Of a DNA stretch of 64,000 bases, positions 34,473 to 54,980 are shown piece by piece. This DNA comes from Candidatus Multivoradales bacterium (GTDB lineage Bacteria; Acidobacteriota; Thermoanaerobaculia; Multivoradales; Multivoraceae), in NCBI GenBank assembly GCA_965223325.1, contig CBDCWI010000002.1, positions 1,952,001-2,016,000 of the forward strand, read 5' to 3'. How positions within the stretch are numbered: the stretch's first letter is position 1; the number at the start of each line of letters is the position of its first letter. Below the pieces are notes generated by a model. That model searched no databases. It worked only from the letters and a program-made list of their open reading frames with translations, and was not told the DNA's origin. The translations under genes and the position numbers were made by a program.

Positions 34473-34863
34473 GAGAAGCGCGCTTACCGGGAAGTTCGGC
34501 CAAGGAGTTCAGCGGACACGAGCATTTTTAGCGAAACGACCGCCACTCAGAGAGGCGCGCGCAACTCAGCTGGGAAGTCGCCCGTGCTCCCACCCTTCAA
34601 GTAGGCCCACGGGATCGGCTCTTCGATCTCGCGTGGGAGCGCTCCGCAGCCGAATGAAGCGCCTCGTGTTGCTCCCTTCGGACCGAAGGTCCACTCAGGG
34701 TATGGTGTCTCTGAGACCTCTTCGTATCCTGAGACAATGTCCTGCAGATCATCGCCGACTGGCTTGCAGGGTTGAAACCTACGCTGATTCCGCAGCCTGA
34801 GGACAGACGCTGACTTCGGAGCGATCTCCCCGTCTCATCACGACAAACTCCCTAGGATGCTGC

Positions 34864-36888: not shown

Positions 36889-37746
36889 TCAGTACAACAG
36901 CTCCACCCATCTCCCCCCGGCAAGGAGCTCCGCCTTCCTGCGCTGCCAGGCCTCGGCCGACCCCAGGATCCCACTCAGTACATGGTCGAGCTCATCGCGG
37001 ATGTGCTCTAGACCCGCTACGTACACGTAGGTGCGAGGCTGGCCGAGCATTTCGACCAGCTCCTCGGCGCGCTCTTCGAGGGCAGAGTCCCAGGCAATCG
37101 GCGCACCCCAAGCTGGGCGCGGACTCAGTGCCTTCACCGCCTCGAAGGTGTCGCAGTCGTAGTACTGAGCGAAGTCATCGCGCTCGTCGTTCATGTAGAG
37201 CAGCTCGAGGCCAGTTCTTCCGCCGTAGTACAGCCGCACTTCTCCCTGCCAGTCCGGAATGTTCTGGTAGATGTGCTTGACCAGCGTCCTGAAGGGAGCG
37301 ATGCCGGTACCGGTGCCGACCAGGATCAGGCTGGCGTCCCTTTCTCGTGGCACCTGAAAGGGCATGCCATAGGGACCGGCCAGGATCAAAGTCTCGCCCT
37401 GCCTAAGGTCGCACAGGAAGTTCGACGCGATGCCTTCGAACTCCTCACCGCTGTACTCGTCGACGTAGCGACAGCGCTTGACGCAGATCTTGATGCGCTG
37501 GTGGGTCGCGTCGGCCTCGGGAAGGTCGGCAACGCTGTAGAGACGGAGGTGATCGTACTCGCCGAAGGCGCGGTCGCCGGGGGCCAGGACGCCGACGCTC
37601 TGCCCTACCTCGAAGGCGGTGTCGCGCTTGGCGAACTCGAGCAGAAGCTCGCGTACCTCGTCGTCAGACTGTTCGGAGGTGATGCGCTCGGACGACAGTA
37701 CGGTCGCCTCATAGCGTTCGCTGGTGTCGTAGTCCTGGAGTCTCAT
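36889..37746 (-). CDS. Ferredoxin--NADP+ reductase (plant-type FNR fold)
   Basis: LRLYSVA, ICVKR, GIASNFLC, GTGTGIAPF, ALSPR, C-terminal VELLY. Confidence 0.85.
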   Translation of the reverse strand: MRLQDYDTSERYEATVLSSERITSEQSDDEVRELLLEFAKRDTAFEVGQSVGVLAPGDRAFGEYDHLRLYSVADLPEADATHQRIKICVKRCRYVDEYSGEEFEGIASNFLCDLRQGETLILAGPYGMPFQVPRERDASLILVGTGTGIAPFRTLVKHIYQNIPDWQGEVRLYYGGRTGLELLYMNDERDDFAQYYDCDTFEAVKALSPRPAWGAPIAWDSALEERAEELVEMLGQPRTYVYVAGLEHIRDELDHVLSGILGSAEAWQRRKAELLAGGRWVELLY

Positions 37747-37961
37747 GTTCCTACTTCCTCTTTTGGTGGCACGCTCGTTCCACGACCCGAACGCTCACAA
37801 GGCCCGCGGCACCCACAGTTTCCACAGGCGAACAGACGCTCGAGGGCGTCTTCGCTGGACCTTTCGGGAAAGCTGCGCTGCCAGGCACGCTGAATCAGCA
37901 GCCAAGGCAGGATCAGCACTGAAATCGCGGCGCAGGCGAGCAGGAGATCGATCGTGTTCAT
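37743..37961 (-). CDS. Small membrane protein with C-terminal Cys cluster
   Basis: One TM helix then CGNCGCRGPC; stop overlaps the FNR start (ATGA); purine-rich RBS upstream. Confidence 0.6.
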   Translation of the reverse strand: MNTIDLLLACAAISVLILPWLLIQRAWQRSFPERSSEDALERLFACGNCGCRGPCERSGRGTSVPPKEEVGT

Positions 37962-37988
37962 CTTTCTTTGACCTCTTTCGATCGGTCC

Positions 37989-38570
37989 TCAGCTGGTGAG
38001 GCCGGCGAAACCCATAAAGGTGAGCGACAGGATGCCGGCGACAATCAGAGTGATGGCCGCACCCTGCACCAGGTCGGGAGTCTGGGCGAGCTCGAGCTTC
38101 TCGCGCACTCCGGCCATCAACACCAACGCGAGGGTGAAGCCGGCGCCCGCGCCCAGGGCGAAAACGAGTGCCCCGAGGAAGCCGTAGCCACGGTTGGTCT
38201 GAAACAACACCACGCCGAGAATGGCGCAGTTGGTGGTGATCAAGGGCAGGAAGATGCCGAGGGCACGGAACAGCGCCGGACTGGTCTTCTTGATGAACAT
38301 CTCCACCAGCTGCACGGTCGAGGCGATGACCACGATGAAGGCGATCAGGCGCAGGAAGGGTACGCCCAGGTAGAGCAGCAGGCTGTTGATGGCGTAACCG
38401 CACACCGAGCTCACCAGCATCACAAAGGTCACCGCCGCCCCCATGCGGGTGGCGGTCTCGAGCTTGGCCGACACGCCGAGGAAGGGGCAAATGCCCAGGA
38501 AGTAGGCCAGCACGAAGTTGTTGATCAGGCACGCGCCGAGGAAGATCGAGAACAGGGAGGACTCGCTCAT
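37989..38570 (-). CDS. rnfA: Rnf electron transport complex subunit A
   Basis: NNFVLAYFLGICPFLGVS, LGIFLPLITTNCAILG, LSLTFMGF.GL. Confidence 0.93.
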   Translation of the reverse strand: MSESSLFSIFLGACLINNFVLAYFLGICPFLGVSAKLETATRMGAAVTFVMLVSSVCGYAINSLLLYLGVPFLRLIAFIVVIASTVQLVEMFIKKTSPALFRALGIFLPLITTNCAILGVVLFQTNRGYGFLGALVFALGAGAGFTLALVLMAGVREKLELAQTPDLVQGAAITLIVAGILSLTFMGFAGLTS

Positions 38571-39208
38571 GCGGATCCCTCCCCGGCGCGCCGCTCGCGG
38601 CGCTGCTTCATAGCTTGGAACAGCAGCAGCCACGCTGCCAGGGTGAAGAAGCCGCCCCCGGGCAGGATCATCACCACCCAGGGCTCGAACGCGTCGTGAA
38701 AGAGACCAACCCCAAACAGCGAGCCGGCCCCCAAGATCTCACGTACAGCTCCCAGGGTGAAGAGGCCAAAGGTGAAACCGGCGCCCATGCCCAGCCCGTC
38801 GAGCAGCGAGCGAAACACGGTGTTCTTCGAGGCGAAGGCTTCGGCGCGTCCGAGGATCAGGCAGTTCACCACGATCAGAGAGATGAAGGCGCCGAGCGCC
38901 TTGTGCAGGTCGAGGCTGATCGCTTGGATCAGATAGTCGACCACTGTGACGAAGGTGGCGATGATCAGGATGTAGGTGGCAATGCGCACCTGGCGCGGAA
39001 TGAAGTGGCGCAACGACGACACCAGCAAGTTCGATAGCACCAGTACGAAGGTGGTGGCAAGGCCCATGGCCAGTGCGTTGATGGCACTGTTCGACACTGC
39101 CAGTACCGGACACATCCCGAGCAGCTGCACGAACACCGGGTTCTCACGCCAGAGCCCCTTGACCATCTCGTCGGCAGCCGGCGGCGGGGCGTCTTCGAGT
39201 ATGGTCAC
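38567..39208 (-). CDS. rnfE: Rnf electron transport complex subunit E
   Basis: GLWRENPVFVQLLGMCPVLAV, LIVVNCLILGRAEAFA, VREILG.G, ILPGGGF; GTG start overlaps the rnfG stop. Confidence 0.93.
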   Translation of the reverse strand: MTILEDAPPPAADEMVKGLWRENPVFVQLLGMCPVLAVSNSAINALAMGLATTFVLVLSNLLVSSLRHFIPRQVRIATYILIIATFVTVVDYLIQAISLDLHKALGAFISLIVVNCLILGRAEAFASKNTVFRSLLDGLGMGAGFTFGLFTLGAVREILGAGSLFGVGLFHDAFEPWVVMILPGGGFFTLAAWLLLFQAMKQRRERRAGEGSA

Positions 39209-39891
39209 TTCGAGTCCTCCTCGAAGGTGCTCGAGCGGCGCTCCACCAGCGGCACCCAGCGCTCGGTGCTGACGCGCAGCAGCTCCCCCACCGCCACCGA
39301 CGAAATGGTGGCGCCTGAGATGCCGTCGACCTGCCAAGGCTCGGTCTTGGCGCCGTCGGCAACCGCCACGATGGCGTGGCGCGGTGCACTACCGTCCTCG
39401 TTCAGGCGGACGTCGAGACGCTCGAAGTTGGCGAGGAACTCTTCGTCGGTCTCGATGCGATCGCCTAGACCCGGAGTCTCCCGGCTCTCCAGCACTTCGA
39501 AGCCGATGATTGCGTCGTGCTCGAGCGAGTAGCCGTAGAGGACACGGATCATGTCCTGGTAGCCCATGCCCGCCGCTTCGATCGCGACTCCGGCCAGCGA
39601 ACCGTCAACGCGATAGCCGGCGTGGACCCGCTCGCCCGCCTCTCCCTCGGCGCCACTTTCCTCGGCGCCAACGAAGTCGTCGCCCTCGAGGCGTAAGGAC
39701 CGGGTGCTGACCGTCTCGGGCAACACTTCGAGAATGGCGCGCTCGAGCGCCTCGGCACGGTTGCGCTCAATGGTCTCGGCGGTCGATTGGTGCACTACCA
39801 CGATGAGCAAGGCACAGGCCAGGCCCACTCCGACCATCGCCCGGTAGAGCGGCCAGAGCGGGGTCTGCGGTAACGTCTGAGGAGCGGTCAC
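39205..39891 (-). CDS. rnfG: Rnf electron transport complex subunit G
   Basis: N-terminal TM, GYQD.I, ETPGLGDRI, VDGISGATISS (covalent FMN Thr). Occupies the C-terminal part of ORF 39205..40728. Confidence 0.9.
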   Translation of the reverse strand: MTAPQTLPQTPLWPLYRAMVGVGLACALLIVVVHQSTAETIERNRAEALERAILEVLPETVSTRSLRLEGDDFVGAEESGAEGEAGERVHAGYRVDGSLAGVAIEAAGMGYQDMIRVLYGYSLEHDAIIGFEVLESRETPGLGDRIETDEEFLANFERLDVRLNEDGSAPRHAIVAVADGAKTEPWQVDGISGATISSVAVGELLRVSTERWVPLVERRSSTFEEDSK

Positions 39892-40952
39892 GTCACCACC
39901 TCCTTCGCCGCCGGCTTCGCGCGCCGGGCGCCGTACACCCGCGGCCGGATCCACTGGTCGATCAGCGGCGACGCCGCATTGGCGAACAGGATGGCGTACA
40001 TCACACCTTCGGGCATGCCGCCCCAGATCCGGATCACCACCACCAGCACGCCGATCAGGCCGCCGTAGAGCCAGAGTCCAACCTTGGTCATCGGAGTAGC
40101 CACCATGTCGGTGGCCATGAACACGGCACCCAGCATCAGACCGCCTGCCAGGAGCATGAAGGCGGCGTCGGGGTGGACTGGGTCGAGGGCATGCAGGATG
40201 GTGCTTAGCACTGCGACGGTACCCAGAATCGCCACTGGGATCTGCCAACTCATCATCCGGCGTATCGCCAAATAGAGGCCGCCGAGCAGAATCAGCACGG
40301 CACAGGTCTCGCCGGTGGAACCCGAGACCATCCCCAGGGCGAGGTCGCCCGTGGCTGTGAGTTGCTGTTCGAACTTCATGGCGGAGAGCGGCGTCGGCCC
40401 ACTCACTGCGTCGTAAGTCGGTCTGCTGAAGGGCAGCGCCAGGGTGGACGACGGCAAACGCGTGAAGCGCTCGACCAGGAAGGATGGCTGCCAGCTGGTC
40501 ATCGCGGCTGGAAACGCCGCCTGGGCGAAGGCTCGACCTACCAGCGCCGGATTGAAGGCGTTGTAGCCTAGGCCGCCGAACAGCAGCTTGCCCACCACCA
40601 TGCCGAACACAGCGCCCGTAGCGTTCATCCACAGCGGCAAACCGGGTGGAAGGGTCAAGCCGTAGAGCAGGCCGGTGATCACCGCCGACCAATCGCTGAC
40701 GCTCGACGCCTTCCCTGAGAGCCGACAAGCCGCAGCTTCGGTGGCGACGCAGCTGCCAACCGCCACCGCCAAGGTTGCGAGCGCCGCCAAGCCAAAGGCG
40801 TAGACACCGAAGGCCGCCACGGGCAGCAGCGCCCAGACAACGTTGCGCATGATCACGTCGACACTGCGTCCGCTCATGATGTGCGGCGACGACTGGATCT
40901 CAAGCGTCTTGCGGAGACCGGAGGCGGAGCCCGCCTGGGAGGGGATGGTCAC
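39888..40952 (-). CDS. rnfD: Rnf electron transport complex subunit D
   Basis: SSPHI, KLLFGGLG.N.FNPALVGRAF, DAVSGPTPL (FMN Thr), GSTGET, FMATD...P, PEGV.YAIL..N. Confidence 0.93.
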   Translation of the reverse strand: MTIPSQAGSASGLRKTLEIQSSPHIMSGRSVDVIMRNVVWALLPVAAFGVYAFGLAALATLAVAVGSCVATEAAACRLSGKASSVSDWSAVITGLLYGLTLPPGLPLWMNATGAVFGMVVGKLLFGGLGYNAFNPALVGRAFAQAAFPAAMTSWQPSFLVERFTRLPSSTLALPFSRPTYDAVSGPTPLSAMKFEQQLTATGDLALGMVSGSTGETCAVLILLGGLYLAIRRMMSWQIPVAILGTVAVLSTILHALDPVHPDAAFMLLAGGLMLGAVFMATDMVATPMTKVGLWLYGGLIGVLVVVIRIWGGMPEGVMYAILFANAASPLIDQWIRPRVYGARRAKPAAKEVVT

Positions 40953-42316
40953 GCCGCCCCCTTCTGGAGCGCCTCTTGTCTGGCTGCCGCCTTGCGCACG
41001 GCGGCCTTGGCCATCCGGAAGTGCTGCACCAGCGGGATGTGCGAAGGGCAAACGAAGGAACAGCAGCCGCACTCGAAACAGTCCATGAGGTGGAACTCTT
41101 CCGCCATGCGCGCGTACTCCCCCTTCTTGGCCAGCAGGCCGAGCTGCGACGGGTTGAGGAACAGTGGGCAGGCCGCCAGGCAGTCGGCGCAGTGGATGCA
41201 GGGGTACTCCTTGCGGCGCGCCAACGGTGCGGTCTCGCGCTCGGTGAAAGCAACGACTCCCGACGTACCCTTGGTGATCGGAACGTCGAGACTGGAGGCT
41301 GCGCCGCCCATCATCGGACCGCCGAGAAAGACCTGGCTCGTGTTTTCGGCGAGATCGACCTGCTCGAGCAGGAAGCGCAGCGGGGTGCCGATCGGAATGC
41401 GGTAGTTGCCCTTCTTGCCGACCGCCGGGCCCGAGATCGTGATCACCCGCTCCTGAATCCCCCGGCCGTGCGGGAGCAGGCGCCCGATCTCGGCAGTGGT
41501 GGCGACGTTGGTGCACAGAGCGCCAGTGTCGAGCGGCAAGCCGCCAGAAGGCACTTCACGACCGAGCAATGCCGAGATCAGCATCTTCTCGGCACCCTGC
41601 GGATACTTGACGGGCAGGGTCACCACCTCCGCCGGCAAATCGGCGGGCAGGTTCTCCTCGAGCAGCGCGGCGGCATCGACCTTGTTGTCTTCGATGGCGA
41701 CGATCGCGCGCTCGGCCCCACTCACCGTCAGCAGATAGCGAATGCCCTCGTAGATGTCTTCCGACTGCTCGAGCATCACCCGGTGGTCGGTGGTGAGGTA
41801 AGGCTCGCATTCGACCCCGTTGACGATCATGGTGTCGACGCGTTTGTCCTCGGGAACCGCCAGCTTGACGTGGGTCGGAAAGGCGGCACCTCCCAAGCCC
41901 ACGATGCCGGCAGTCTGGATCGCCTCGAGGATCTGCCGGCGCGGCGCGTCGAGCGGACAGGGTGTTCCCTCAGCCACCTCCTGAGTGGAGCTGGGATAGG
42001 GCCGAAGGTAGATCCCGGTCACCATGCGCCCGCTGGCGCTCGGCACCAGACCAATCCGCTCCACCCTCCCCGAGACCGGAGCATGCATCGCCACTGACAC
42101 CCAGCCTTCGGGACGCGCGATCAGCTGGCCGCGCACCACCTCTTCGTCCTCCCTCACCACCGGTACCGCAGGGGCGCCGATGTGCTGGGACAGCGGCACC
42201 ACCAGAGCTGGAGCGAAGGGAAACCGCCGAATTGGCAGCGAAGCGGTGGTGTCCTTCGACTCCGGCGGATGGATGCCGTGCGGAAACGTGTTGCGTTGGC
42301 GCAGAAAAGAGAACAT
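40949..42316 (-). CDS. rnfC: Rnf electron transport complex subunit C
   Basis: GIHPP, LSQHIGAP, HAPVSG, AGIVGLGGAAFPT.VK, NGVECEPYLT.D, KYPQGAEK, GGPMMG, CIHCADCLAACP, CFECGCCSFVCP. Confidence 0.93.
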   Translation of the reverse strand: MFSFLRQRNTFPHGIHPPESKDTTASLPIRRFPFAPALVVPLSQHIGAPAVPVVREDEEVVRGQLIARPEGWVSVAMHAPVSGRVERIGLVPSASGRMVTGIYLRPYPSSTQEVAEGTPCPLDAPRRQILEAIQTAGIVGLGGAAFPTHVKLAVPEDKRVDTMIVNGVECEPYLTTDHRVMLEQSEDIYEGIRYLLTVSGAERAIVAIEDNKVDAAALLEENLPADLPAEVVTLPVKYPQGAEKMLISALLGREVPSGGLPLDTGALCTNVATTAEIGRLLPHGRGIQERVITISGPAVGKKGNYRIPIGTPLRFLLEQVDLAENTSQVFLGGPMMGGAASSLDVPITKGTSGVVAFTERETAPLARRKEYPCIHCADCLAACPLFLNPSQLGLLAKKGEYARMAEEFHLMDCFECGCCSFVCPSHIPLVQHFRMAKAAVRKAAARQEALQKGAA

Positions 42317-42323
42317 TGAAACC

Positions 42324-45300
42324 TCAGTTGTACTTCTGCCCGCGCTCGATCCAGCGCTCGATGTCCTTGGCCGAGCGGTCTTTCGGCACGCCGGGATGGA
42401 TAATGCCGGCGGTGCAGCGCTCGGCAGCCTTGACGAGGTCCTGGTAGGGACCGGCCTCTGCATCGGCGATGTAGGCCTTGCGCTTGTCGTTGTAGACGAA
42501 AATCTTCGAGTTGATGTGGATGCACTCGTCGCAGGTGGTGCACAGGTCGGTGTCGATCCATGGCGCCACGGCAGGTGGGGCGCCATCCTCGCCGGCTGGC
42601 GGTTCGGCGCCTGCGTTCCCCCCGTTGGCGGCAATCTCTCCTCCCGAGCTCGAGGCCACCACCGGCAGCTCCACCGGCTCGGCCGACAAGAGGTCGGCTA
42701 CCTGATCTCCCTCGCCGACGGCAATTCGCACCAGGTTGCGCGTGATGGTCGAGATGACCTCGCCGCGCACCTTCGCTTCGACCTCAGGTAGCGAGATCTC
42801 TTCCCGATCCAACCCAGCCAGGGCGCGCAACATGGTCCAGAACTGCCGGCGGTCTTCGCACGACCGCACCATGGTGTGGTCGACCAGCAAACGGCTGAGT
42901 CGCTCTTCGCGATCCACCGTCCAGATGAACGGGTAGCGATCCTCGCGCTCCCTCTCATCGAGCTCGAGGAACTCGTCGAGAGGCACCATTTGATCGTTCC
43001 ATGTGTCGGGCGGCGCCTTGCGGAAGTGCTTTCGGAAGCGAACCTCGGTAATCGCGAAGTCGGCGAAGGTCATAGGCAGCTCCATCTCCTTCTCGATGCC
43101 GGACTCGCGGTAGGCCAGTCTGTAGGTCGGCCAGTCCTGGTCGATCGCTGGGTTGCCTTCGAGGTCGAAGCACTCGCGTGGCGTGATGCCGCGGTCGGGG
43201 TCGTAGCGGAAGAGGGGATAGGCACGCGACTCGACCGCCAGCTTTGCCTGGTGGGTGCTCATGTCGTCGCCGATGCCGTGCTCCGGCTGGCAGGCGGTGT
43301 ACAAGTTGAACAGCGCCGGTCGGCGCGCCTTGAGGCCGTGGATGAAGCCCTCGATCATGTGCGACGGGTTGGCCGCGGTGGCCTGCATGACGTAGGTCGT
43401 GCGGTGCGCCATGCCGATCAGGCCAATCTCCTTTCGCTGCTCCTCCTTGCCCCGGCTGACGCGCCCGAACTGCGCCATGTCAGAGACCTGGCCGAGGAAG
43501 CCCGAGGTGCAGGCCTGGCCGCCGGTGTTCGAGTAGACCTGCGTGTCCACCACCACGATCTTGATTGGCTTGCCCGACATCATGGCGCGCGACAAGTTCT
43601 GGAACCCGATGTCGTACATGGCACCGTCGCCGCCAACCGCCACCACCGGCGGGCACAATTCCCACTCCTCGTCGGTGAAGTCCTGCCAAGTGAGGTAGGC
43701 CATCTGCTCGTCGTGCTCGGCCGGCTTGTAGCGCCCCGCAATCTCGAGCTCGGCCAGGCGGATGGCCTTGAAGCCTTCGGCCATCTTGGCCATGTGACCT
43801 TCGAAAATGCCGAGTGCCATCGACGCCGAGTCCTGGAACAGGTGGTTGGTCCAGGGGAAGGGGTAGGGGTTGAAGGGATAGGTGCTGCCCCACACCGAAG
43901 TGCAACCGGTGGCATTGACCATGCCCATCGACGTGCGGCCCTTGCCGCTGGCACCCCGCTCGTAGCGCCAGAGCAGGTTCTTGAGCTTCGCCACCAGGCC
44001 GGTCGTGCGCCGCAGCCACTCCTGGTCGATCGGCTGCGCGCCTTCACGACCTGCGGCGTGTTCGGCGAGGTCGGCCAGCGTCAGGTCCTCGTCCTGGTGC
44101 GCGGCGGTAAAGCCGGCGATGTCGCTCGCGTCGGAGACGTCGAGCCCGCCCACGAGCTGGAGACGCACGTGCTGCTCGAGGCGCTCGATCAGGTCGTGCA
44201 GGTAGGCGGTGTGCTTCTTCACCCGCGGCTGCATCAGCGCCTCGACGGTGGCAGTGAAGAGGTGGATCACCGTCTTCTCGCCGCAGCCAAGGCAGGCACC
44301 GTCGCCACTGGTCAGGGAGAGGTAGTTGTTCTTGTCGAGCAGGATGGTCTCGAGCGCACCAATCGCCTCGTCGATGTCGTCGACGCGGATGTACTTCTGA
44401 GGTGTCGTCGGCAGATCGAGCCAGAAGTCCCAGTGCTGGCGCAAGGTCTCGATGCTGTCGTCGGTCTGGGTGACCCGGTGCAGTGCGTCGTCGTCGCACA
44501 CCTCGACGCACTCCATGCAGCCCTTGCAGGTGTAAGGGTTCACCGTTATCGAGAGCAGGCCGCCGTCGCCAGCCTGGCGCTGCTCGGGCACCGTGAAGTA
44601 GGGCCGAGAGAGAGCGAACTGGAAGTCTCCTAGTTCTTCCCGGAACCAGTCGAGTTCCCGTTCGAGAACTGTACGCTCGACCCCATTCCCGGAAGACCCA
44701 TTCCCGGTCATCTCATCGAGAGCCGCGGTAATCGCACCGTCCATCATCGCCGACACCGAGTCGGTCTCTTCAGCCTGCTGGAACAGACCGCGAAGATGGC
44801 GTTCGACGATGCGTGACGCCTTCGGCAGGTGTTCGACCTCGTGCCCCTGGTTGCGCACCCGCTTCACCACAGTGTCGATCACTTCGCCGACTTCGTTGAC
44901 GAGGCCGGGAATCGCGGTGTCGGGACAAACGGTGTAGCAGTCGCCACAGGCGGTGCAGTTCTCCGGAATCCACTGCGGATGCTCGAAGCGGATGCCGGTC
45001 ATGTCGCGGAACAGCGCCGATACCGCCGGGATCACTCCGAGGCCAATGAACGGGTCGGTCAGGTTGTCACTCCCCTGGCCGCGGACGTAGAAGCTGCCGG
45101 TCTGTTCCCAGAAGCGATGCACATCGGTGATTGGCGCCTGCCCTTGCGGCACCGACTCGAGCATCACCGGTAGCTGCGGGCCGCTGCCGTTTCCGTTCAC
45201 CGGTGCCGCTACCTCCTCGATCGAGTCGTAGGGCACCGGCTTCAGCTCTTCGAACCCACGCTTGACTACGCGCACGTTGTCTGCCACTACCCGCGCGCCC

Positions 45301-47369: not shown

Positions 47370-47413
47370 CCTCACCCCAAAACGCTGTTCGAACTCAGCG
47401 ACCGATACTGCAC

Positions 47414-48277
47414 TCAGGTCGGCGCGACGGGCGCAGTACCCTGACGGACGACCTTGTGAGCCGCCGCACCCTTGATGACGGTTCCGTCCGGCTCCAGCCA
47501 GACGATGGCGCCAGTCGGACAGCGCGCGATTGGATCGCGAGTCGCGTGATCGCGGCGGTAGTCGACGACCGGTAGGTTGTTGCTCATTGTGATCAGCCCG
47601 GGAGCGTCCATGGCGCAGCGGGCGCAGGCCGTGCAGCCCACCTCGCAGTCCTCGAGGAGATCGTCGCCCGCCTCGAGCGAGCGGCACGCCACCCAGAGCC
47701 GGTGGCTCACCGCGTGCAGCGAGAATAGGTTCTTGGGGCAGGCCTCCACACAGTCGCCGCACGCTGTGCAGAGATCCTCGTTGACCACAGGGAGCCGATG
47801 GCGATTCATCTCGATGGCGCCGAAGTCGCATGACACCTCGCAGTCACCGATGCCGAGGCAGCCCCAGAAGCACCCCTTCCCACCGCCGGCAACCAACGTC
47901 GCCGCCGAGCAGCTCTCGACTCCACGGTAGACGGCGTGCATGCGGGCAACGTTGGCGCCGCCGGCGCAAGCCAGGCGAGCAACGCACTTCTCTTCGTTGC
48001 CCACGTCGACCCCGAGGTAGCGCGCGATGCGCTGGCGAGCCGACTCCGAGCTCACGGTGCACTTGCCGGGCAGCACGTCGCCGCGCACCAACGCCTCAGC
48101 GAACGGCGCACAACCGGGATAACCGCAGCCTCCGCAGTTGGTCTGGGGCAGCAGGTCTTCCACCTCCCGAATGCGCGGGTCCTCCGCCACCGCCAGCCGA
48201 CGATCGGCCAGCACCAGGAGCGAAGCCAAGAGGAGCGTCAGCCCGCCCAGGGTCGCAACGGCGGTGGTCAGGAGCAT
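47414..48277 (-). CDS. rnfB: Rnf electron transport complex subunit B
   Basis: N-terminal TM, EDPRI...LPQTNCGGCGYPGC, CFWGCLGIGDCEVSC, CTACGDCVEACP, CTACARCAMD, CPTGAI. Confidence 0.92.
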   Translation of the reverse strand: MLLTTAVATLGGLTLLLASLLVLADRRLAVAEDPRIREVEDLLPQTNCGGCGYPGCAPFAEALVRGDVLPGKCTVSSESARQRIARYLGVDVGNEEKCVARLACAGGANVARMHAVYRGVESCSAATLVAGGGKGCFWGCLGIGDCEVSCDFGAIEMNRHRLPVVNEDLCTACGDCVEACPKNLFSLHAVSHRLWVACRSLEAGDDLLEDCEVGCTACARCAMDAPGLITMSNNLPVVDYRRDHATRDPIARCPTGAIVWLEPDGTVIKGAAAHKVVRQGTAPVAPT

Positions 48278-48417
48278 GAAGAACGTCCTCCAGAAACGAG
48301 ATTGCCGCGGAACCACGAAAGCAGAGTGGCCCGTCGAGTTGGGGCGGGCCACCGAAGCAACGACTCGAGAATAGCCGTTCTCGGAGAAACTGTAGGTGCG
48401 TGGTCACAGCACCAAAC

Positions 48418-48433
48418 CTAGGGAAAACCCTAG
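48418..48433. promoter_or_regulatory. Perfect palindrome, candidate operator for the divergent rnf/PFOR and hemerythrin/OFOR arms
   Basis: CTAGGG-AAAA-CCCTAG in the 238-bp divergent intergenic region. Confidence 0.55.
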
Positions 48434-48515
48434 ATAGCCAGCCATTTCAAATTCTTTCAGCATTGGAGGATCGGCTCGGGCAGGAGCCGTAACCTGTCGA
48501 TTCGCAGGAGGAACC

Positions 48516-48932
48516 ATGACGGACTCGAAGAAGCTCCATCGCGAGATCCAAGAAGAGCACGACGCGATCCAGACATTGGTTCGACAGTTGTCCAAGGAAG
48601 TCGAGACGCCGGCCATCGAGAGTGAGTTGCGGGAGTTGGCCGGCCTGCTCGACACACACTTCGGCCGCGAGGAAGCCCCGAAGGGTCTTCACGACTCGAT
48701 CGGCGACCGTGCTCTCAACCTCTTGCCGCACGTCGAGAAGCTATCTACCCAGCATCGGGAGATCGCCGGGAACCTGCAGAGCCTGCTCGACCAGTGTGCG
48801 CGGCACACGCGCATGGCTGAAGAGATCCGACAGGGCGCGCGTGGTCTGGTCGAGCAGTTGAAGAAGCACGAGGCCGATGAGAACGATCTGCTCGGTCACG
48901 CCTTCTACGACACCCTCGGAGTCGGCGACTGA
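48516..48932 (+). CDS. Hemerythrin-like (HHE) domain protein
   Basis: EHDAI...HFGREE...QHREI...HEADE iron-ligand pattern; AGGAGG RBS. Confidence 0.82.
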   Translation: MTDSKKLHREIQEEHDAIQTLVRQLSKEVETPAIESELRELAGLLDTHFGREEAPKGLHDSIGDRALNLLPHVEKLSTQHREIAGNLQSLLDQCARHTRMAEEIRQGARGLVEQLKKHEADENDLLGHAFYDTLGVGD

Positions 48933-49003
48933 GAGCCTTGCTCTCCTCTTTCGCTTCTGAAGCTCCCCTTCTCTGAGATCTCGTTGCCTGGTGCCGACCC
49001 GCT

Positions 49004-50902
49004 ATGACCGAGGCACCTGCACCGAAAGCGCCCAATCTGTCCGATCGGCAGCCGGTCGGTGAGCGAGTTGCCATCGATGAGCACATCGTCGAGATCGTCA
49101 GCGACTCCGGGGAGGGCGCACAGAAGGCAGGCCAGACCATGGGCACGGTCAGCGCCCGCATGGGCAACGGCGTCTGGACAGTCGAGATCATCCCAGCCGA
49201 GATCAAGCCGCCGGCACGCTCACGCGCGGGGGCCAGCGGCATCCGAGTCCGAATCGGCAGCCGCGAGATCAACAACGTCGGCGACCGCGCCGACCTGGTG
49301 GTCGCCTTCAACGAGCAGGTGCTCTACGGCCGCGTCGAAGCGGGAGCCTACGGCCCGAAGACGATCGTCCTGCTTGAGAGCTCCTGGGCTGAGCATCCGG
49401 ACGAGGCCATCCGGGAGCAGTACCGCCAGGCGCTCAAGGACTTCAGCCAGGTCGGGCTCAACATCATCGAACTGCCGATCGAAGCGACGTGCCGTACGGT
49501 CTTTAAGAAGCCTCCGGTCGGCAGGCTCCTGGGCAAGAACATGTTCGTGGTCGGCATGCTCGCCCACATCTACGACCGTGACCGTGACGAGATCAAGAAC
49601 GAGATCGAGCTTTTGTTCAAGAAGCGCGGCCAGGAGGTCGTCGACCTCAACCACGAGCTGGTCGACGCCGGTTGGCAGTTTGCGCGCGACAGCGTCAACC
49701 TGCGCTTCGAGATCGGACCGCTAGCCGACAGTGGTGAGCGTGTGGTCATGAACGGCAACCAGGCGGTTGGCCTCGGGGTGCTCGCCGCCGGAATTGAAGT
49801 CGTGGCGATGTACCCGATCACCCCAGCGACCTCGGTGTCGCACTACCTCGCTGCCGCCCTGCCCCGTACCGGAGGCATCGTGCATCAGGCGGAAGACGAG
49901 ATCGCAGCGATCGGCTTCGCGATCGGCGCCAGCTATGCCGGCAAGACAGCCTGTACCATCACCTCAGGGCCCGGTCTGGCCCTCAAGACCGAGTTCCTTG
50001 GTCTGGCGGTGATGGCCGAGATTCCGTTGGTCGTCGTGCTGGTGCAACGCGGCGGACCGTCCACGGGTCTGCCAACCAAAGTCGAGCAGGGAGACCTACT
50101 CGCGGTCCTCTACGGCACGCCAGGAGATGCTCCCAAGGTGGTGCTGGCGCCGTCGACCATCGAAGAGTGCTTCCACTTCGTGGTTCTGGCTCGCAAGCTG
50201 GCCGAAGACCTCCGAGCGCCGATCTTCCTGCTCACCGACGCAAACCTCGCCACCGGGGTGCAACCGTTTCCACGCCCTCAGTTCGATCCGGACTGGCTGG
50301 CGCCACCGCTCGATCAGAGTCCCTGGCCGGACGACAAACCGGCCTACGACTGGGATTCGGCCACCGGCCTGTCGCGTCGGCCGATCCCCGGCCAGCGTGG
50401 CGGCGAGTACGTCGTCACGGGCCTGGCGCACACCAACCAGGCCAAGGTGGTCTACGACTCGCACTCCAACCAGCAAGCCTGCGAGCATCGTAGCCGCAAG
50501 CTCGCTACCCTGGCTTCGACCCTCAAGCCGCCCGAGGTCTACGGCGACGACGAGGGCGACCTTCTCCTCGTGGGCTGGGGCTCGACGCGCGGTTCGATCG
50601 AAGAGGCGGTCGGCCGCCTGCGAGAGCGCGGACACCGCGTCTCGGCCATCCACCTGCGCTTCCTGTCGCCGCTCGAACCCGGGCTCGACGAGATCTTCCA
50701 GCGCTTCGGTCGCGTCATGACGATCGAGCTCAACTACTCCGACCCCACCGACCTCGAGCCGAGGACTTCTCGGCGCATGAGTCAGCTCGCCACGCTGCTG
50801 CGCGCGACATCCCTCCACGATATCGAGTGCTGGTCCCGGGTTTCCGGCCAACCCCTGCCTCCGGGCGACCTAGTGAGAGAAGTGGAACGATGTTTGACGT
50901 GA
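49004..50902 (+). CDS. 2-oxoacid:ferredoxin oxidoreductase alpha subunit (KorA-like)
   Basis: SDSGEG, IPAEI, YPITPAT, QAEDEIAA, TSGPGLALK.E, QRGGPSTGLPTKVEQGDL, GWGST. Confidence 0.9.
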   Translation: MTEAPAPKAPNLSDRQPVGERVAIDEHIVEIVSDSGEGAQKAGQTMGTVSARMGNGVWTVEIIPAEIKPPARSRAGASGIRVRIGSREINNVGDRADLVVAFNEQVLYGRVEAGAYGPKTIVLLESSWAEHPDEAIREQYRQALKDFSQVGLNIIELPIEATCRTVFKKPPVGRLLGKNMFVVGMLAHIYDRDRDEIKNEIELLFKKRGQEVVDLNHELVDAGWQFARDSVNLRFEIGPLADSGERVVMNGNQAVGLGVLAAGIEVVAMYPITPATSVSHYLAAALPRTGGIVHQAEDEIAAIGFAIGASYAGKTACTITSGPGLALKTEFLGLAVMAEIPLVVVLVQRGGPSTGLPTKVEQGDLLAVLYGTPGDAPKVVLAPSTIEECFHFVVLARKLAEDLRAPIFLLTDANLATGVQPFPRPQFDPDWLAPPLDQSPWPDDKPAYDWDSATGLSRRPIPGQRGGEYVVTGLAHTNQAKVVYDSHSNQQACEHRSRKLATLASTLKPPEVYGDDEGDLLLVGWGSTRGSIEEAVGRLRERGHRVSAIHLRFLSPLEPGLDEIFQRFGRVMTIELNYSDPTDLEPRTSRRMSQLATLLRATSLHDIECWSRVSGQPLPPGDLVREVERCLT

Positions 50903-51840
50903 AAGACGACTGGGCCCTCGAGCTTCCTGAGCGCTACTTCACTTTAGAGAACTACGAAGGCGGCATCGCACGCTGGTGTCCCGGCTGCGGCGACCACGGC
51001 ATCCTGGCAGCGGTCAAGAGAATCTGCGCCGAAGAGCAGATCCCATCTGAGCGTGTGGTGGCCATTTCCGGCATCGGGTGCGCCAGTCGCTTTCCGCACT
51101 ACATGCACGCCTACGGGTTTCACGGCCTGCACGGCCGAGCGTTGCCTGTGGCCTGCGGCGTCAAAGCCAGGCGCCCGGACCTGAAAGTATGGGTCGCCAC
51201 TGGAGACGGCGACTGCTGCTCGATCGGCGCCGGCCACTGGCTGCACGCCATCCGCTTCAACATGGACATGACCGTCATGCTGTTCGACAACAACATCTAC
51301 GGCTTGACCAAGAAGCAAACGTCACCCACCACCCCGGTGGGAACCGTCACCAACACCAGCCCGGAGGGTGCCTGGCTGCCGCCACTCAACGTGCTCGAGA
51401 ACGTGCTCGGTTTCACCAATGTCTCCTTCGTAGCGCGTACCGTCGACTGGAACGCCAACCACCTCCACGACACCCTGCGGCGTGCCTACGACCACGAGGG
51501 ATTGAGCTTCGTCCACATCCTGCAACGCTGCCCGACCTACACCGAGCACATCTTCGATGACTGGCGCAACAACCCGGATCGCGTCCTGCTGCTCGAGCAC
51601 GAGGACGGCGTGCCGATCGCCGAGAGCGTGGGCAAGATCTTCAGCCAGCGCCAAGCACACGATCCGCAAGATCTACAGGCGGCACGCCAACTGGCGGTGG
51701 CAGACGATCTGGCCCTCGGCCTCTTCTACTGCAATCCAGAGGCACCTCGCTACGAGAGCTTCACCAACCATGGGCTCGAGATGAGCCGCGAGCAGCGGTG
51801 GTCTGCGATCGCCGAAGAGCTCGATCGCTTCACGATCTGA
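50890..51840 (+). CDS. 2-oxoacid:ferredoxin oxidoreductase beta subunit (KorB-like)
   Basis: WCPGCGD, SGIGC, HGLHGRA, GDGD, DNNIYGLTKKQ.SPT, CPTY. Confidence 0.9.
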   Translation: MFDVKDDWALELPERYFTLENYEGGIARWCPGCGDHGILAAVKRICAEEQIPSERVVAISGIGCASRFPHYMHAYGFHGLHGRALPVACGVKARRPDLKVWVATGDGDCCSIGAGHWLHAIRFNMDMTVMLFDNNIYGLTKKQTSPTTPVGTVTNTSPEGAWLPPLNVLENVLGFTNVSFVARTVDWNANHLHDTLRRAYDHEGLSFVHILQRCPTYTEHIFDDWRNNPDRVLLLEHEDGVPIAESVGKIFSQRQAHDPQDLQAARQLAVADDLALGLFYCNPEAPRYESFTNHGLEMSREQRWSAIAEELDRFTI

Positions 51841-51857
51841 GAGGACCTGGGCAACCG

Positions 51858-53525
51858 ATGTCCGATCGCGAATCCGAGTCGCTCGAGCAACACCTGCGGC
51901 AGCTTCAGGGCTTTCATTTCGGCGTCGAGGGTTCGGGCACTGCGGCGGCCGCCGAGGCGCTTGCTCTGGTTCCCGCCTGGCTGCCGGAGGTAGAACGTCG
52001 GCTCGCCGGTGGATCGAGCCTACGCTGCCTGATCCAGCGCGCCGAGGTTGCCTACTCGAGTGCATGGAAGGATTGGCAGCAGCGGGCCTCCCCCATCGCG
52101 ACGGCACTCGAGTCGTTGGTGGGATCAATCGGCGAGGGCGGTGCCTCCTCGCCTGCTGCACTCGGGGCCATGGGCTCGCGCTTCGTCAACCCGGATGCCC
52201 TCGCCACCAGACTGAGCTCCCAGCGCCGGGAGAGTGTCTCGGCCGAACGCCAGAGCCGACTCGAGAAGAGCCTCGCCGTGCTCCGGCGCGGACTCGAAGG
52301 CCGCATGACCCGTCGCCCGCTGATCCTGTGCGATCCCGACCTCTCAGCCTTGAGCGCCGACCTTCCGGAAGGCATCGACATCACGGTCGAAGAGCGGCCC
52401 TGCCGCTCCATCGTCGAGCCATTCGAGGAACGCGCCAATGAAGTGGCCGAGCTCATCGCGGCGCTACGGGTCGCCCGACTCGAGCTCGAGCAGTCTTACG
52501 ATCCCGCGGTGCACGATTCAGACCTCGTCCACTTCGACTGGCGCAGCCTGCACGACGCCGAGCGGCCCCTCCTGCCCAGCCTGCTCTGTGTCGTGTCGTA
52601 CCCGAACGCCATCGGCGACGAGCTGAGCGCACTGTTTCAGCTCTTGACATCGGCGCTGCCGATCCAGATCCTGGTTCCGGTCGCACCGCTGGCCAGTGCC
52701 TTGGACGGTGAAATCGACCTCGCCCACCTGGCTTTGAGCCACCGACGCAGCTTCGTCCACCAGGGATCCTTGGCCGCAGCCGACTTGCTCGAACGCGGAT
52801 TCGATCGCGCCCTTGCGACACCAGGCGCCGCCCTTCACCTGATTGCCGGTGACGAGCTTGGCGAGGATGGGCAGCCGGAGAGCCCCGGCGCCGCGGTCGA
52901 CGCTCGCTGCCATCCCCTCTTCGTGTTCGATCCCGGGCCGTCGCGGGCCAGCGCCGTGCTCGAGCTCGACGGCAACCAGCTTCCCGATCAAGACTGGGTC
53001 ACCAGCGACGAACTGTCCTTCACCATAGCTCACTTGGCATTGCTGTCGCCCCGCGGCCTCAGGGAGCTGGCGCCAGTCGCCGAAGACCTACTCCCCGAGC
53101 CCGCAACGGCCGGAAACGGGCCTGCGTCCGTTCCATCCAGAATGCAGGCGAAGCCATCCGCTCGGTCCTCCGAAACGCTTCTGCCCCTGGGGGAATGGCT
53201 CTCACTCACCCCCGAGCAGACCCGGCGCAAGCTCCCCTTCATCCATGCCGCCAACCAGGAGGGAGACATCGTCCACTTGGTCGCGAGCCGTCGACTCGCC
53301 CTGGCCTGCATCGAGCGCCTCGACCACTGGCGGACACTCCGGCGCCTCGCGGATCGCACCCCAGCCACCGCACCTCGGGCGCTGCCGAGCGAACAGCTAC
53401 CGATGCTGCCAGACGCCCAGTCGGACGAGCCGGCGCTCCACCCTGATGTCGAACGGTTGCGGATGGCCGAGCAGGTGGTTGGCCGTCTGATGTCGCGGCT
53501 TCTCAACGACGGGCCTTCAGCATGA
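51858..53525 (+). CDS. Hypothetical protein, degenerate paralog of the PFOR TPP-binding/C-terminal region
   Basis: Colinear similarity to the C-terminal third of 42324..47369 (see findings), with no GDG or Fe-S Cys motifs. Confidence 0.7.
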   Translation: MSDRESESLEQHLRQLQGFHFGVEGSGTAAAAEALALVPAWLPEVERRLAGGSSLRCLIQRAEVAYSSAWKDWQQRASPIATALESLVGSIGEGGASSPAALGAMGSRFVNPDALATRLSSQRRESVSAERQSRLEKSLAVLRRGLEGRMTRRPLILCDPDLSALSADLPEGIDITVEERPCRSIVEPFEERANEVAELIAALRVARLELEQSYDPAVHDSDLVHFDWRSLHDAERPLLPSLLCVVSYPNAIGDELSALFQLLTSALPIQILVPVAPLASALDGEIDLAHLALSHRRSFVHQGSLAAADLLERGFDRALATPGAALHLIAGDELGEDGQPESPGAAVDARCHPLFVFDPGPSRASAVLELDGNQLPDQDWVTSDELSFTIAHLALLSPRGLRELAPVAEDLLPEPATAGNGPASVPSRMQAKPSARSSETLLPLGEWLSLTPEQTRRKLPFIHAANQEGDIVHLVASRRLALACIERLDHWRTLRRLADRTPATAPRALPSEQLPMLPDAQSDEPALHPDVERLRMAEQVVGRLMSRLLNDGPSA

Positions 53526-53814: not shown

Positions 53815-54333
53815 TCAGTCCTGCATCTGTCGCGTCCACGTCGCCTGGTCGAAGTAGTCGCGCCAGGCGGCGATCTTGCCATCTCTGAGATCGAACGCTC
53901 CCATCACCGGCAGGGCAACGTCCTTGTCGCCGAAGACGAAGCGGTCCATGCGCTCGTTGAGGACTGTGGACCCGACCTGGGAACTGTTGAGGATCTCCCA
54001 GTCGACCTTCGCCGCAGCGTTGACGTAGGACTCGATCAGGTTACGAACAGCCTCGGTGCCCTGCACCGGACCGGTGGGCATGTTGTGGTAGATGGCGTCT
54101 TCGGTGAAGAAGCTCATGATGCGGTCGATGTCTTTGGTGTTGAAGGCGGCGATGAAGTCTTCGACGATCTCGATTCCGTTGCTCACGCTGTCCTCGGCTT
54201 TCTTGGCTGGTTCCGGCTCCGTCGCGGACTCGCGTGCAACCAGGGGGCTGCAGAGCAACACGACGGCCAGGAGTGCGCCCGCGCCCCTACGGATCAGGTC
54301 TGGTGCGGTCGCAGTGCGGGGTGAATGGTTCAT
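53815..54333 (-). CDS. Limonene-1,2-epoxide hydrolase family (NTF2-like) protein with signal peptide
   Basis: YHNMP, NERMD, LPVMG.F, WRDYFD (Tyr/Asn and Arg-Asp/Asp catalytic set); N-terminal RR plus hydrophobic segment; ATGA overlap with tetR. Confidence 0.82.
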   Translation of the reverse strand: MNHSPRTATAPDLIRRGAGALLAVVLLCSPLVARESATEPEPAKKAEDSVSNGIEIVEDFIAAFNTKDIDRIMSFFTEDAIYHNMPTGPVQGTEAVRNLIESYVNAAAKVDWEILNSSQVGSTVLNERMDRFVFGDKDVALPVMGAFDLRDGKIAAWRDYFDQATWTRQMQD

Positions 54334-54971
54334 GGATCGGCTGCACTTTCTTCTTTGTCTGCTGGCAGTAGCCCGTTGAGCAGGAGCTCGAAGGCACCTT
54401 TCAGTTCGTGATCCGTGGGATGAGCGATGGCACCGAGATTGCGTCGCGAGTCGCGCAGGACCACGAGGCCCAGAAACGACGCCCACATCAGGTCGGCGAC
54501 ACCGCGGCTGTTCGGGATTCCCAGAGTCTCCTCGAGCAGACTCGCCAGGCCCCTGAAATCGTCGCCCGAGCGCTTTTTCAGCTCCTCCAACACGGCCTGC
54601 TCGACCGAGTCCGTCGAGCGCGGATGACCGAGGTAGGTGAACACGTGAAAGTACTCCGGGTGCTCCTTGGTGACCGTGACCCAGAACTCCCACAGGCTGG
54701 CGAGCTTCTGCACTGGCTCGTCTCGTGACTCGCGGATCCGCTCAATCCCTTCGGACATGAAATCGATGCTCTCGAACAGGAGCGACGTGAAGATCTCGTC
54801 TTTACTCTTGAAGTAGAAGAAGAGCGTCGCCTCGGAGAGCTCGCAACGCTCGGCGATCTCACGGGTCGTGGTGCCGTTGAAACCCTTCTCGCGTACGAGG
54901 GCCCGAGCCGCTTCGAGCACCGCGCCCCGTCGTGCCTTTCGCTCCCTCTGTCGTCGCTCCTGGACACCCAT
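54330..54971 (-). CDS. TetR-family transcriptional regulator
   Basis: KGFNGTTTREIAERCELSEATLFFYFKSKDEI helix-turn-helix. Confidence 0.92.
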   Translation of the reverse strand: MGVQERRQRERKARRGAVLEAARALVREKGFNGTTTREIAERCELSEATLFFYFKSKDEIFTSLLFESIDFMSEGIERIRESRDEPVQKLASLWEFWVTVTKEHPEYFHVFTYLGHPRSTDSVEQAVLEELKKRSGDDFRGLASLLEETLGIPNSRGVADLMWASFLGLVVLRDSRRNLGAIAHPTDHELKGAFELLLNGLLPADKEESAADP

Positions 54972-54980
54972 CGCTCGTGA

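Follow-up and report, generated by a model that had tools for sequence, protein, structure and literature searches.

The window analysed here, a 64,000-nucleotide stretch of the Candidatus Multivoradales bacterium assembly GCA_965223325.1 (contig CBDCWI010000002.1, positions 1,952,001 to 2,016,000), carries two divergent gene arms that probably specify one electron-transfer module around a distinct clade of the Rnf pump, linking central carbon metabolism directly to membrane energy. On the minus strand, the gene for a giant pyruvate:ferredoxin oxidoreductase (PFOR) lies inside the rnf operon, between rnfB and rnfC; on the plus strand stand genes for a hemerythrin, a two-subunit 2-oxoacid:ferredoxin oxidoreductase (OFOR; here KorAB) and a PFOR-like protein, called X below. 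The feature is real, widely conserved and a variant assembled from known parts. This picture is built on the observed gene content, the catalytic and Fe-S ligands, the fold of a tethered ferredoxin, the gene order, the Rnf clade and the joining of KorAB-X to Rnf.

Our working model, an even call in our judgement, is that the region encodes a 2-oxoacid:NAD(P)+ module coupled to an ion gradient and running in the oxidative direction. PFOR would convert pyruvate and CoA to acetyl-CoA and CO2, and its electrons would pass through three canonical [4Fe-4S] clusters and on to the ferredoxin domain of the same chain, swinging on a disordered tether of ~80 residues. The tethered ferredoxin would then reduce either the RnfB polyferredoxin, with Rnf reducing NAD+ and pumping Na+ or H+, or a plant-type ferredoxin-NADP+ reductase (FNR), which would reduce NADP+. 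Hemerythrin-KorAB-X would provide a second input, in which KorAB may oxidise 2-oxoglutarate and X may adapt KorAB to the acceptor system of PFOR. Electrons would be handed over directly, without free ferredoxin, and a small Cys-rich membrane protein probably aids maturation of the pump, as ApbE of related loci is known to do. The oxidative, energy-conserving direction would apply under oxygen or energy limitation; the reactions are thermodynamically reversible.

Genes of the two arms

Gene models were drawn from Pfam and NCBIfam scans, a survey of start codons and direct reading of the sequence. They returned every gene, with the tight spacing, that an initial annotation of this DNA had placed on the minus arm (rnfB-PFOR-rnfC-D-G-E-A-small Cys protein-FNR), and all four that it had placed on the plus arm (hemerythrin-OFOR alpha-OFOR beta-PFOR-like protein), thirteen genes in total.

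36889-37746, minus strand: FNR-like flavoenzyme, plant-type, 285 aa; Pfam NAD_binding_1
37743-37961, minus strand: small membrane Cys protein, 72 aa; without Pfam or NCBIfam match
37989-38570, minus strand: rnfA, 193 aa; TIGR01943 239 bits against a cut-off of 229.3; ATG start at 38570
38567-39208, minus strand: rnfE, 213 aa; TIGR01948 247.1 bits against a cut-off of 213.4; start at 39208
39205-39891, minus strand: rnfG, 228 aa; Pfam FMN_bind 49.6 bits against a cut-off of 22; TIGR01947 83.4, below 102
39888-40952, minus strand: rnfD, 354 aa; TIGR01946 308.5 bits against a cut-off of 207; GTG start at 40952
40949-42316, minus strand: rnfC, NADH/FMN subunit, 455 aa; TIGR01945 488.5 bits against a cut-off of 245.95; start at 42316
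42324-47369, minus strand: giant PFOR, 1681 aa; Pfam POR_N, PFOR_II, POR, Fer4, TPP_enzyme_C and Fer4_13
47414-48277, minus strand: rnfB, polyferredoxin subunit of the long clostridial type, N-terminal membrane helix, 287 aa; ATG at 48277
48278-48515, no strand: divergent intergenic region between rnfB and the hemerythrin gene, 238 bp; carries the palindrome CTAGGGTTTTCCCTAG
48516-48932, plus strand: hemerythrin HHE-domain protein, 138 aa; Pfam PF01814 33.1 bits against a cut-off of 25.3
49004-50902, plus strand: korA, alpha subunit of the two-subunit OFOR, 632 aa; TIGR03710 512.1 against 482.75
50890-51840, plus strand: korB, thiamine diphosphate (ThDP)/[4Fe-4S] beta subunit; Pfam TPP_enzyme_C E 1.5e-27; TIGR02177 243.1 against 261.9
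51798 or 51858 (alternative starts) to 53525, plus strand: X, ThDP-less PFOR-like protein, 555-575 aa; without Pfam or NCBIfam match

The subunits rnfA, rnfB, rnfC, rnfD and rnfE score above their NCBIfam cut-offs, and rnfG falls under its NCBIfam model and over Pfam FMN_bind. RnfB carries Pfam FeS and Fer4 domains (TIGR01944 88.2 bits against a cut-off of 68.7), has 7zc6_B (E 1.8e-48) and 9eri_B as its nearest solved structures, and keeps twenty Cys invariant in a 46-sequence alignment. A complete six-subunit Rnf gene set is thereby encoded, predicted to act as a ferredoxin:NAD+ oxidoreductase coupled to Na+/H+ translocation. The spacing is close throughout: 7 nt separate the PFOR stop from the ATG of rnfC, rnfD, rnfG and rnfE each start in a 4-bp GTGA overlap with the preceding gene, and the starts of rnfA and of the FNR gene lie in ATGA overlaps. 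The GTG start of rnfG at 39891 is preceded by GGAGG. For korB the longest open reading frame (ORF) begins at GTG 50827, and ATG 50890 is the likelier start.

Between the two arms, CTAGGGTTTTCCCTAG forms a perfect palindrome at ~48418-48433 that could be an operator common to both. Scans of this intergenic region with consensus promoters and terminators did no better than on shuffled sequence.

Conserved gene order and a separate Rnf clade

We collected related loci in two ways. A PFOR-seeded scan with one genome per species found at least 730 relatives, the best 80 of which gave 75 loci, and an rnfC-seeded scan gave 79 new loci from the best-scoring 80 of a longer list. Both sets are biased towards close relatives because they stem from the best-scoring 80 of larger lists, and four contigs are common to them (L031/L087, L010/L095, L034/L104 and L016/L139). 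The initial annotation had asked whether the order rnfB-PFOR-rnfCDGEA-fnr recurs across genomes, and it does (58/59 and 59/61 loci). With at least 1.5 kb of downstream sequence, rnfC directly follows PFOR in 58 of the 59 PFOR-seeded loci and in 72/72 rnfC-seeded ones; read the other way, with at least 5.5 kb available upstream, the giant PFOR directly precedes rnfC in 54/54 and 59/61 loci, respectively. The downstream exception, L038, has a giant PFOR (66% identity) without rnf genes within ~5 kb downstream or 10 kb upstream. The two upstream exceptions are L164 (Nitrospirales) and L151, whose PFOR-like gene is 36% identical. At L164, and likewise at L141 (Nitrospiraceae), rnfB adjoins rnfC with no PFOR between them, which looks like secondary loss in these Nitrospirota operons.

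The outer genes are more mobile. Immediately before PFOR, rnfB is found in 46/61 PFOR-seeded and 40/56 rnfC-seeded loci; it stands elsewhere in the locus in 10/61 and 11/56, and was not seen in 5/61 and 5/56. The displaced rnfB lies behind the FNR gene, an order seen in Bacteroidota and Methylotuvimicrobium. The FNR gene follows rnfA in 44/51 PFOR-seeded and 42/53 rnfC-seeded loci. Recurrent flank genes include ApbE (15 loci) and LysR regulators (12).

Record titles of loci with the PFOR-Rnf order bear ~ten phylum-level labels, among them Acidobacteriota, Myxococcota, Gamma- and Betaproteobacteria, Bacteroidota and Planctomycetota, together with Verrucomicrobiota, Hydrogenedentota, Calditrichota, Spirochaetota and Eisenbacteria. 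Cultured carriers include Methylotuvimicrobium buryatense 5G, Thiocapsa marina, T. roseopersicina and Algoriphagus kandeliae, as well as Seonamhaeicola, Flavivirga, Pelagicoccus mobilis and Flammeovirga; in A. kandeliae korAB-X is also found, behind the operon. The supposition that similar clusters exist in other genomes was thus borne out: far from being confined to this genome, the arrangement occurs in hundreds of species, and its recurrence at related loci of many phyla puts it far beyond chance.

Two side observations concern what lies upstream of the cluster in other lineages. In Bacteroidota, a 122-aa protein (L112:2686-3051 and 18 other loci) is encoded directly upstream of PFOR and co-directionally; its match to HEPN is weak and sub-threshold (E 6e-4), and we rejected it as a hemerythrin counterpart, as it is unrelated to the hemerythrin of the window. 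At L008, L010, L103, L129 and L131, which are Woeseiaceae-type and related loci, another kor-like pair (29-46% identity) stands upstream of rnfB together with a 103-aa 2x[4Fe-4S] ferredoxin. This is a third way for an OFOR to neighbour a PFOR-linked Rnf.

The pump itself is also distinct. Among 1.84 billion representatives, a single full-length cluster comes as close to the window RnfC as 65% identity (634 bits); the runner-up over the full length stands at 47% (429 bits). A FastTree phylogeny of 182 RnfC rows (L164 was left out) places all 124 PFOR-linked sequences in one clade of 132 with a support of 100, bearing out the suggestion that such a tree might reveal a distinct clade. Besides these 124, the clade takes in the nested, PFOR-less L141, L151, four representatives and two rows whose context is unknown. 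The additional rnfC copies in Thiocapsa marina and the two Methylotuvimicrobium genomes do not belong to this clade. Within it, Methylotuvimicrobium branches with Bacteroidota and has the same gene order as they do, which points to transfer of the whole cluster.

A further tree (IQ-TREE, quick search, LG+G4, 118 RnfC rows), with the second Rnf copies of Thiocapsa marina and Methylotuvimicrobium as its root, resolves a live-PFOR RnfC clade of 60 rows (SH-aLRT 100) and a clade of 26 rows (SH-aLRT 98) whose RnfC, written RnfC', comes from operons with KorAB and a dead PFOR. The two are sister clades within an 87-row group (SH-aLRT 100), and the simplest reading is therefore that their common ancestor already had a PFOR between rnfB and rnfC. 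What is meant by dead is seen at L151, where the PFOR-like gene has kept the Cys of domain V and of the tail and no longer encodes YPITPST, the ThDP Asn, the substrate Arg or one of the proximal-cluster Cys.

These data bear on an alternative in which the genes share regulation and nothing more: enzymes and pump would draw on a common ferredoxin pool, the C-terminal domain of PFOR would be a fused soluble-type ferredoxin, KorAB-X would be a neighbour with the same regulatory needs, and there would be no docking, supercomplex or channelling. Passages of two reviews describe anaerobes that use PFOR, free ferredoxin and Rnf as separate parts (PMC12174285, PMC13768988), L038 has its giant PFOR away from rnf genes, and one of the two PFOR-less Nitrospirota operons (L141) is nested in the PFOR-linked clade. 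We nevertheless find shared regulation improbable as the whole explanation, since the order is kept over ~ten phylum labels with PFOR inside the rnf string and not beside it, the Rnf subunits form a clade of their own that moves together with PFOR, and the sister clade keeps a dead PFOR in that very place, which is hard to explain without a structural or electron-relay role.

Giant PFOR, X and the accessory proteins

The giant PFOR is composed of domains I-II-III-V-VI with insertions, followed by a conserved C-terminal extension, a disordered linker (~aa 1521-1600) and a tethered ferredoxin domain with a single [4Fe-4S] cluster (~aa 1601-1681). Aligned to the Moorella PFOR 6cin (1171 aa), it matches in five pieces that correspond to domains I-III, the start of V, and VI; the extra sequence lies near aa 383-466, within aa 821-1148 and in a C-terminal extension of ~280 residues. 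The YPITPST and Arg motifs, which we take to contact the substrate, align with those of Moorella PFOR, with pyruvate as the putative substrate. Across 114 full-length relatives (1621-1681 aa), the GDG...N ThDP motif is invariant, as are the Cys of the domain-V clusters (805/808/811/815 and 948/951/954/958), of the proximal cluster (1026/1029/1156/1287) and of the C-terminal domain (1610/1613/1616/1652). By these residues the enzyme looks catalytically live.

The segment at aa ~1521-1600 is gap-rich in the same alignment, with an identity of 0.14-0.27. An AlphaFold2 model of aa 1395-1681, based on 46 sequences, shows a confident extension domain, a disordered stretch and the ferredoxin domain, with a pLDDT of ~40 at aa 1563-1594 (model residues 169-200) and of 95-98 in the ferredoxin. 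The best Foldseek match of the latter is ferredoxin I of D. africanus (1fxr; E 2.9e-4, TM 0.84), with a root-mean-square deviation of 0.9 Å over 58 columns. The fourth cluster of the giant PFOR is thus predicted to sit on a flexible tether. A complex prediction of RnfB 28-287 with the PFOR ferredoxin tail returned a score of 0.00, which has no bearing either way. The NifJ-type model TIGR02176 reaches 411.1 bits on this protein, split over three stretches, against a cut-off of 911.35, which marks the giant PFOR as a separate subfamily. Its family-specific C-terminal region recurs in 2028 protein clusters (90% identity, E <= 1e-10), and the sources give giant PFORs generic names only.

On the plus arm, the nearest solved relative of KorA is 6n2n_A (E 1.9e-80), and KorB contains CPGCG and GDGD motifs. 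KorAB has the features of the two-subunit OFOR family, and its homology suggests 2-oxoglutarate as the substrate. X aligns through residues 209-526 with aa 1189-1528 of the window PFOR (BLASTP, 24% identity, E 2e-21), bearing out the PFOR pseudo-subunit named in the initial annotation. The GDG ThDP motif of PFOR is replaced in X, and no GDG occurs anywhere in it. Its AlphaFold2 model (pLDDT 82, pTM 0.77) matches PFOR 6cio/6cin (E ~1e-6) and OFOR beta subunits in Foldseek. Alignment and model together identify X as a pseudo-enzyme relative, not a functional member of the ThDP-binding family, and as a ThDP-less paralogue of the C-terminal half of PFOR comprising domain VI and the family-specific extension.

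A KorA-seeded scan found 564 relatives, and the best 80 loci were kept. X follows korB in 62 of the 67 loci with enough flank. A word-indexed search with X gave three relatives only; it understated the family, because tblastn guided by context gave X in these 62 loci. Among 61 delimited X genes, 36 lead directly into an rnfB', 7 lie beside a live-PFOR Rnf, 16 have no adjoining rnf gene and 2 are at contig ends. After rnfB', the 36 loci continue with a PFOR-like gene (24-32% identity) and then rnfC' (44-50% identity). Three Bacteroidota loci (L110, L112, L118) have korAB behind rnfB, co-directional with it. Hemerythrin-KorAB-X is therefore a conserved module, repeatedly joined to Rnf operons, and the KorAB-X arm belongs evolutionarily to the sister Rnf type with a dead PFOR. 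The view of the second OFOR as part of the hub holds insofar as KorAB-X recurrently joins Rnf, but its evolutionary home is that sister type. The window is accordingly a natural hybrid, with a live-PFOR Rnf beside a KorAB-X that otherwise accompanies a dead PFOR.

Most X proteins end in an Ala/Pro linker and a CxxCxxC ferredoxin tail (53/61, with 8/61 tail-less). Tails are present in 35/36 X genes that lead into rnfB', 4/7 beside a live-PFOR Rnf, 12/16 without rnf and 2/2 at contig ends. Besides the window copy (51798-53525), the tail-less X are those of L206, L218, L224, L229, L233, L263, L271 and L211. All eight carry Acidobacteriota-type labels and, except for L211, occur only where no dead-PFOR Rnf follows X, and loss of the tail may be a single lineage event.

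The host genome (6.69 Mb in 2 contigs, 98% complete) has a single rnfC and a single rnfD over cut-off, and the giant PFOR of the window is its only PFOR. With a single Rnf in the genome, KorAB-X has no other Rnf partner here. An Nqr-like gene (rnfD/nqrB homologue, below the rnfD cut-off; contig C2 506377-507189) and a second, better-scoring korA (C2 2247500-2249296) lie elsewhere. At E <= 1e-20, the C-terminal region shared by PFOR and X is present in 16/201 sampled genomes of the host phylum and absent from the two other genomes of the host family. The flanks of the two arms (31371-36666 and 53815-56984) hold several apparently unrelated genes, with an AcrB-type efflux pump and a CitMHS/TrkA-C transporter on one side, and a SnoaL/limonene-epoxide-hydrolase-like protein, a TetR regulator, an acyl-CoA dehydrogenase and an enoyl-CoA hydratase on the other.

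Three further proteins accompany the two arms. The 72-aa protein has a single hydrophobic helix followed by the motif W..VQ..W..F...D.L...C..C.C...C; at least 32/48 loci have a comparable small ORF separating rnfA from the FNR gene, and W20, Q24 and C49 are invariant in an alignment of 28 sequences (A1). Scanning these 28 proteins with Pfam and NCBIfam gave no family match, NqrM included (E up to 1). An identification as NqrM was rejected, since PF04400 matches none of the 28 members nor, genome-wide, the window ORF. Its position and architecture, though not its sequence, resemble those of NqrM, and we regard the protein as a candidate factor for Fe-S maturation. Residues 6-281 of the FNR match solved plant and cyanobacterial FNRs (E 4e-35 to 1e-26), and PetH-type models match it full-length below their equivalog cut-offs; by sequence it is an FNR-like two-domain (FAD + NAD(P)) flavoenzyme and not a PetH orthologue. 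The hemerythrin scores 31.5 with the NCBIfam bacteriohemerythrin model, whose cut-off of 84 is not reached. A homologue stands directly upstream of korA in at least 23/74 KorA-related loci, a lower bound because it is based on tblastn at 1e-5.

The FNR and hemerythrin genes raise the alternative that the system serves redox stress and NADPH supply. Its main output would be NADPH, formed from PFOR through the tethered ferredoxin and FNR, with Rnf as an overflow valve and hemerythrin sensing or buffering O2 or NO for the oxygen-sensitive Fe-S enzymes. It would resemble E. coli, in which a PFOR, YdbK, is described in a passage of PMC13768988 as feeding NADPH formation through flavodoxin and Fpr under oxidative stress; the FNR gene also closes the operon in most loci, and hemerythrin recurs upstream of korA as counted above. 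We judge this reading highly improbable, as FNR is absent in 18/104 informative loci whereas the Rnf genes are constant, and seven membrane-pump genes would be a heavy investment for an overflow valve.

Direction of electron flow and known systems

The oxidative direction of the working model was chosen because the FNR step is then downhill and because pyruvate dehydrogenase (PDH) and the glyoxylate shunt make carboxylation dispensable in this heterotrophic host. A downhill flow fits the FNR and the E. coli route from PFOR to NADPH (PMC13768988). The host genome encodes two aceE-type PDH E1 genes, two isocitrate lyases and a malate synthase; with both PDH and the glyoxylate shunt present, gene content alone does not settle the direction.

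The rival direction is reductive. A respiratory ion gradient would drive Rnf from NADH to ferredoxin, PFOR would act as pyruvate synthase and KorAB as 2-oxoglutarate synthase, with C2 assimilation and anaplerotic CO2 fixation as the outcome and FNR adding electrons from NADPH. A gene for phosphoenolpyruvate (PEP) synthase (~800 aa), the next gluconeogenic step, adjoins the PFOR-Rnf cluster in 11 loci with three phylum labels, joined in 7 by its regulatory kinase/phosphorylase (L011-L014, L020, L021, L142, L003, L022, L066 and L120), a hint that some lineages may use the cluster in gluconeogenesis, with PFOR as pyruvate synthase. By their record titles, carriers include sulfur-oxidising or phototrophic autotrophs and methanotrophs, and in passages of the literature Rnf runs in reverse in the aerobe Azotobacter (PMC12174285) and PFOR and OGOR are carboxylases in Aquifex (PMC10052474). 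On the other side, two isocitrate lyases and malate synthase mean that no pyruvate synthase is needed for growth on C2 compounds, electron transfer from NADPH to low-potential ferredoxin through FNR is uphill, and the C-terminal region of PFOR and X is found in only 16 of the 201 phylum genomes sampled. Nothing in the sequence fixes the direction. For this locus we hold the reductive direction to be possible and rather unlikely.

Several observations weigh against the oxidative working model or parts of it. The PEP synthase genes in 11 loci, with the regulator in 7, favour the reductive direction, as do the many carriers that are autotrophs (Thiocapsa, Thiobacillus-like bacteria) or methanotrophs, and the Rnf of A. 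vinelandii, as described in part of PMC12174285, is reversed by the proton motive force of aerobic respiration. The two aceE genes imply that the module is not needed for pyruvate oxidation. The X of the window lacks the ferredoxin tail of most relatives, and the sequence downstream encodes one in none of the three plus-strand frames. FNR is missing in 7/51 and 11/53 loci, and a separate X gene occurs in only 1/5 cultured carriers, so neither FNR nor X is core. Homology is also the source of the putative substrates of PFOR and KorAB.

A stronger form of the working model would make the system a membrane-bound 2-oxoacid dehydrogenase with its own pump, in which live PFOR and KorAB-X would be interchangeable inputs docking physically on RnfB or RnfC, the dead PFOR of the sister clade would be left as a docking scaffold and electrons would move on tethered ferredoxin domains without ever entering the soluble pool. 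We offer this as a tentative and somewhat doubtful extension.

Were this extension correct, mostly aerobic bacteria of ~ten phylum labels could build up or draw down an ion gradient at the pyruvate and 2-oxoglutarate steps of central metabolism, and the window would be a natural hybrid whose single pump takes both inputs. Oxidation of pyruvate and 2-oxoglutarate is usually taken as yielding NADH only in aerobes. With PFOR and KorAB hard-wired to Rnf, cells would harvest an extra 100-200 mV as an ion gradient; in reverse, CO2 fixation into pyruvate would be paid for by that gradient. Carrier groups include marine sediment Woeseiaceae, Flavobacteriia, Saprospiraceae, methanotrophs, purple sulfur bacteria, Acidobacteriota, Planctomycetota and Myxococcota, and such a module would bear on growth-yield models, on hypoxia survival of supposed aerobes and on methanotroph engineering. 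The tethered ferredoxin and the dead-PFOR sister make this a tractable case of electron-input modules being swapped on a respiratory pump.

The description of the locus as an uncharacterised system stands in that we found no published biochemical study of the PFOR-Rnf arrangement, but the arrangement itself had already been mentioned once in print. That mention is the rnf2 operon of the Solemya velum gill symbiont (rnfB2-PFOR-rnfC2DGEA), for which pyruvate was proposed as the electron donor (Dmytrenko et al. 2014, PMC4287430). It is alike in having a PFOR gene between rnfB and rnfC of an rnfBCDGEA-type operon; the passage is one sentence and does not speak of the giant size, tethered ferredoxin, small Cys protein, FNR, KorAB-X, distribution or any experiment. 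The arrangement is absent from the retrieved passages of a 2026 review on PFOR (PMC13768988), and a 2025 review on RNF and NQR (PMC12174285) uses the term PFOR 0 times. The order rnfBCDGEA has been described for Chlorobi and Bacteroidetes (PMC4014512).

Compared to the Rnf of clostridia and acetogens (C. tetanomorphum 7ZC6, A. woodii 9ERI), the window pump has the same six subunits, a long polyferredoxin RnfB and a gene order close to rnfBCDGEA/CDGEAB. Those systems use free ferredoxin as donor and their operons have no oxidoreductase, whereas the window RnfC belongs to a separate clade and PFOR, FNR and the small Cys protein are part of the operon. Single-chain PFORs (Moorella thermoacetica 6CIN, Desulfocurvibacter africanus 1B0P/7PLM) share the domain order, ThDP motif, three [4Fe-4S] sites and Thr/Arg motifs with the giant PFOR, which is ~450-500 residues longer and has a C-terminal extension ending in a tethered ferredoxin. 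KorAB, a relative of 6N2N, differs in being the second and more divergent copy of its genome, and this type is nearly always found with X and often with hemerythrin and Rnf. The Na+-NQR operon, whose maturation genes are nqrM and apbE, likewise encodes a small Cys protein of the membrane directly behind its final pump gene (PMC12174285); ApbE lies in the flanks of 15 PFOR-Rnf loci, and RnfA and RnfE are homologous to NqrE and NqrD. The small Cys protein of the window differs in having no detectable match to NqrM (PF04400).

The closest comparison is with the sister KorAB-X-rnfB'-dead PFOR-rnfC'D' operons, of which we found no account in the published literature. They have the same hemerythrin-KorAB-X and a PFOR-like gene between rnfB and rnfC, but their embedded PFOR is without ThDP and substrate residues (shown for L151), leaving KorAB as the only live enzyme. 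In the window, by contrast, the embedded PFOR appears live, KorAB-X is on the opposite strand and X is tail-less.

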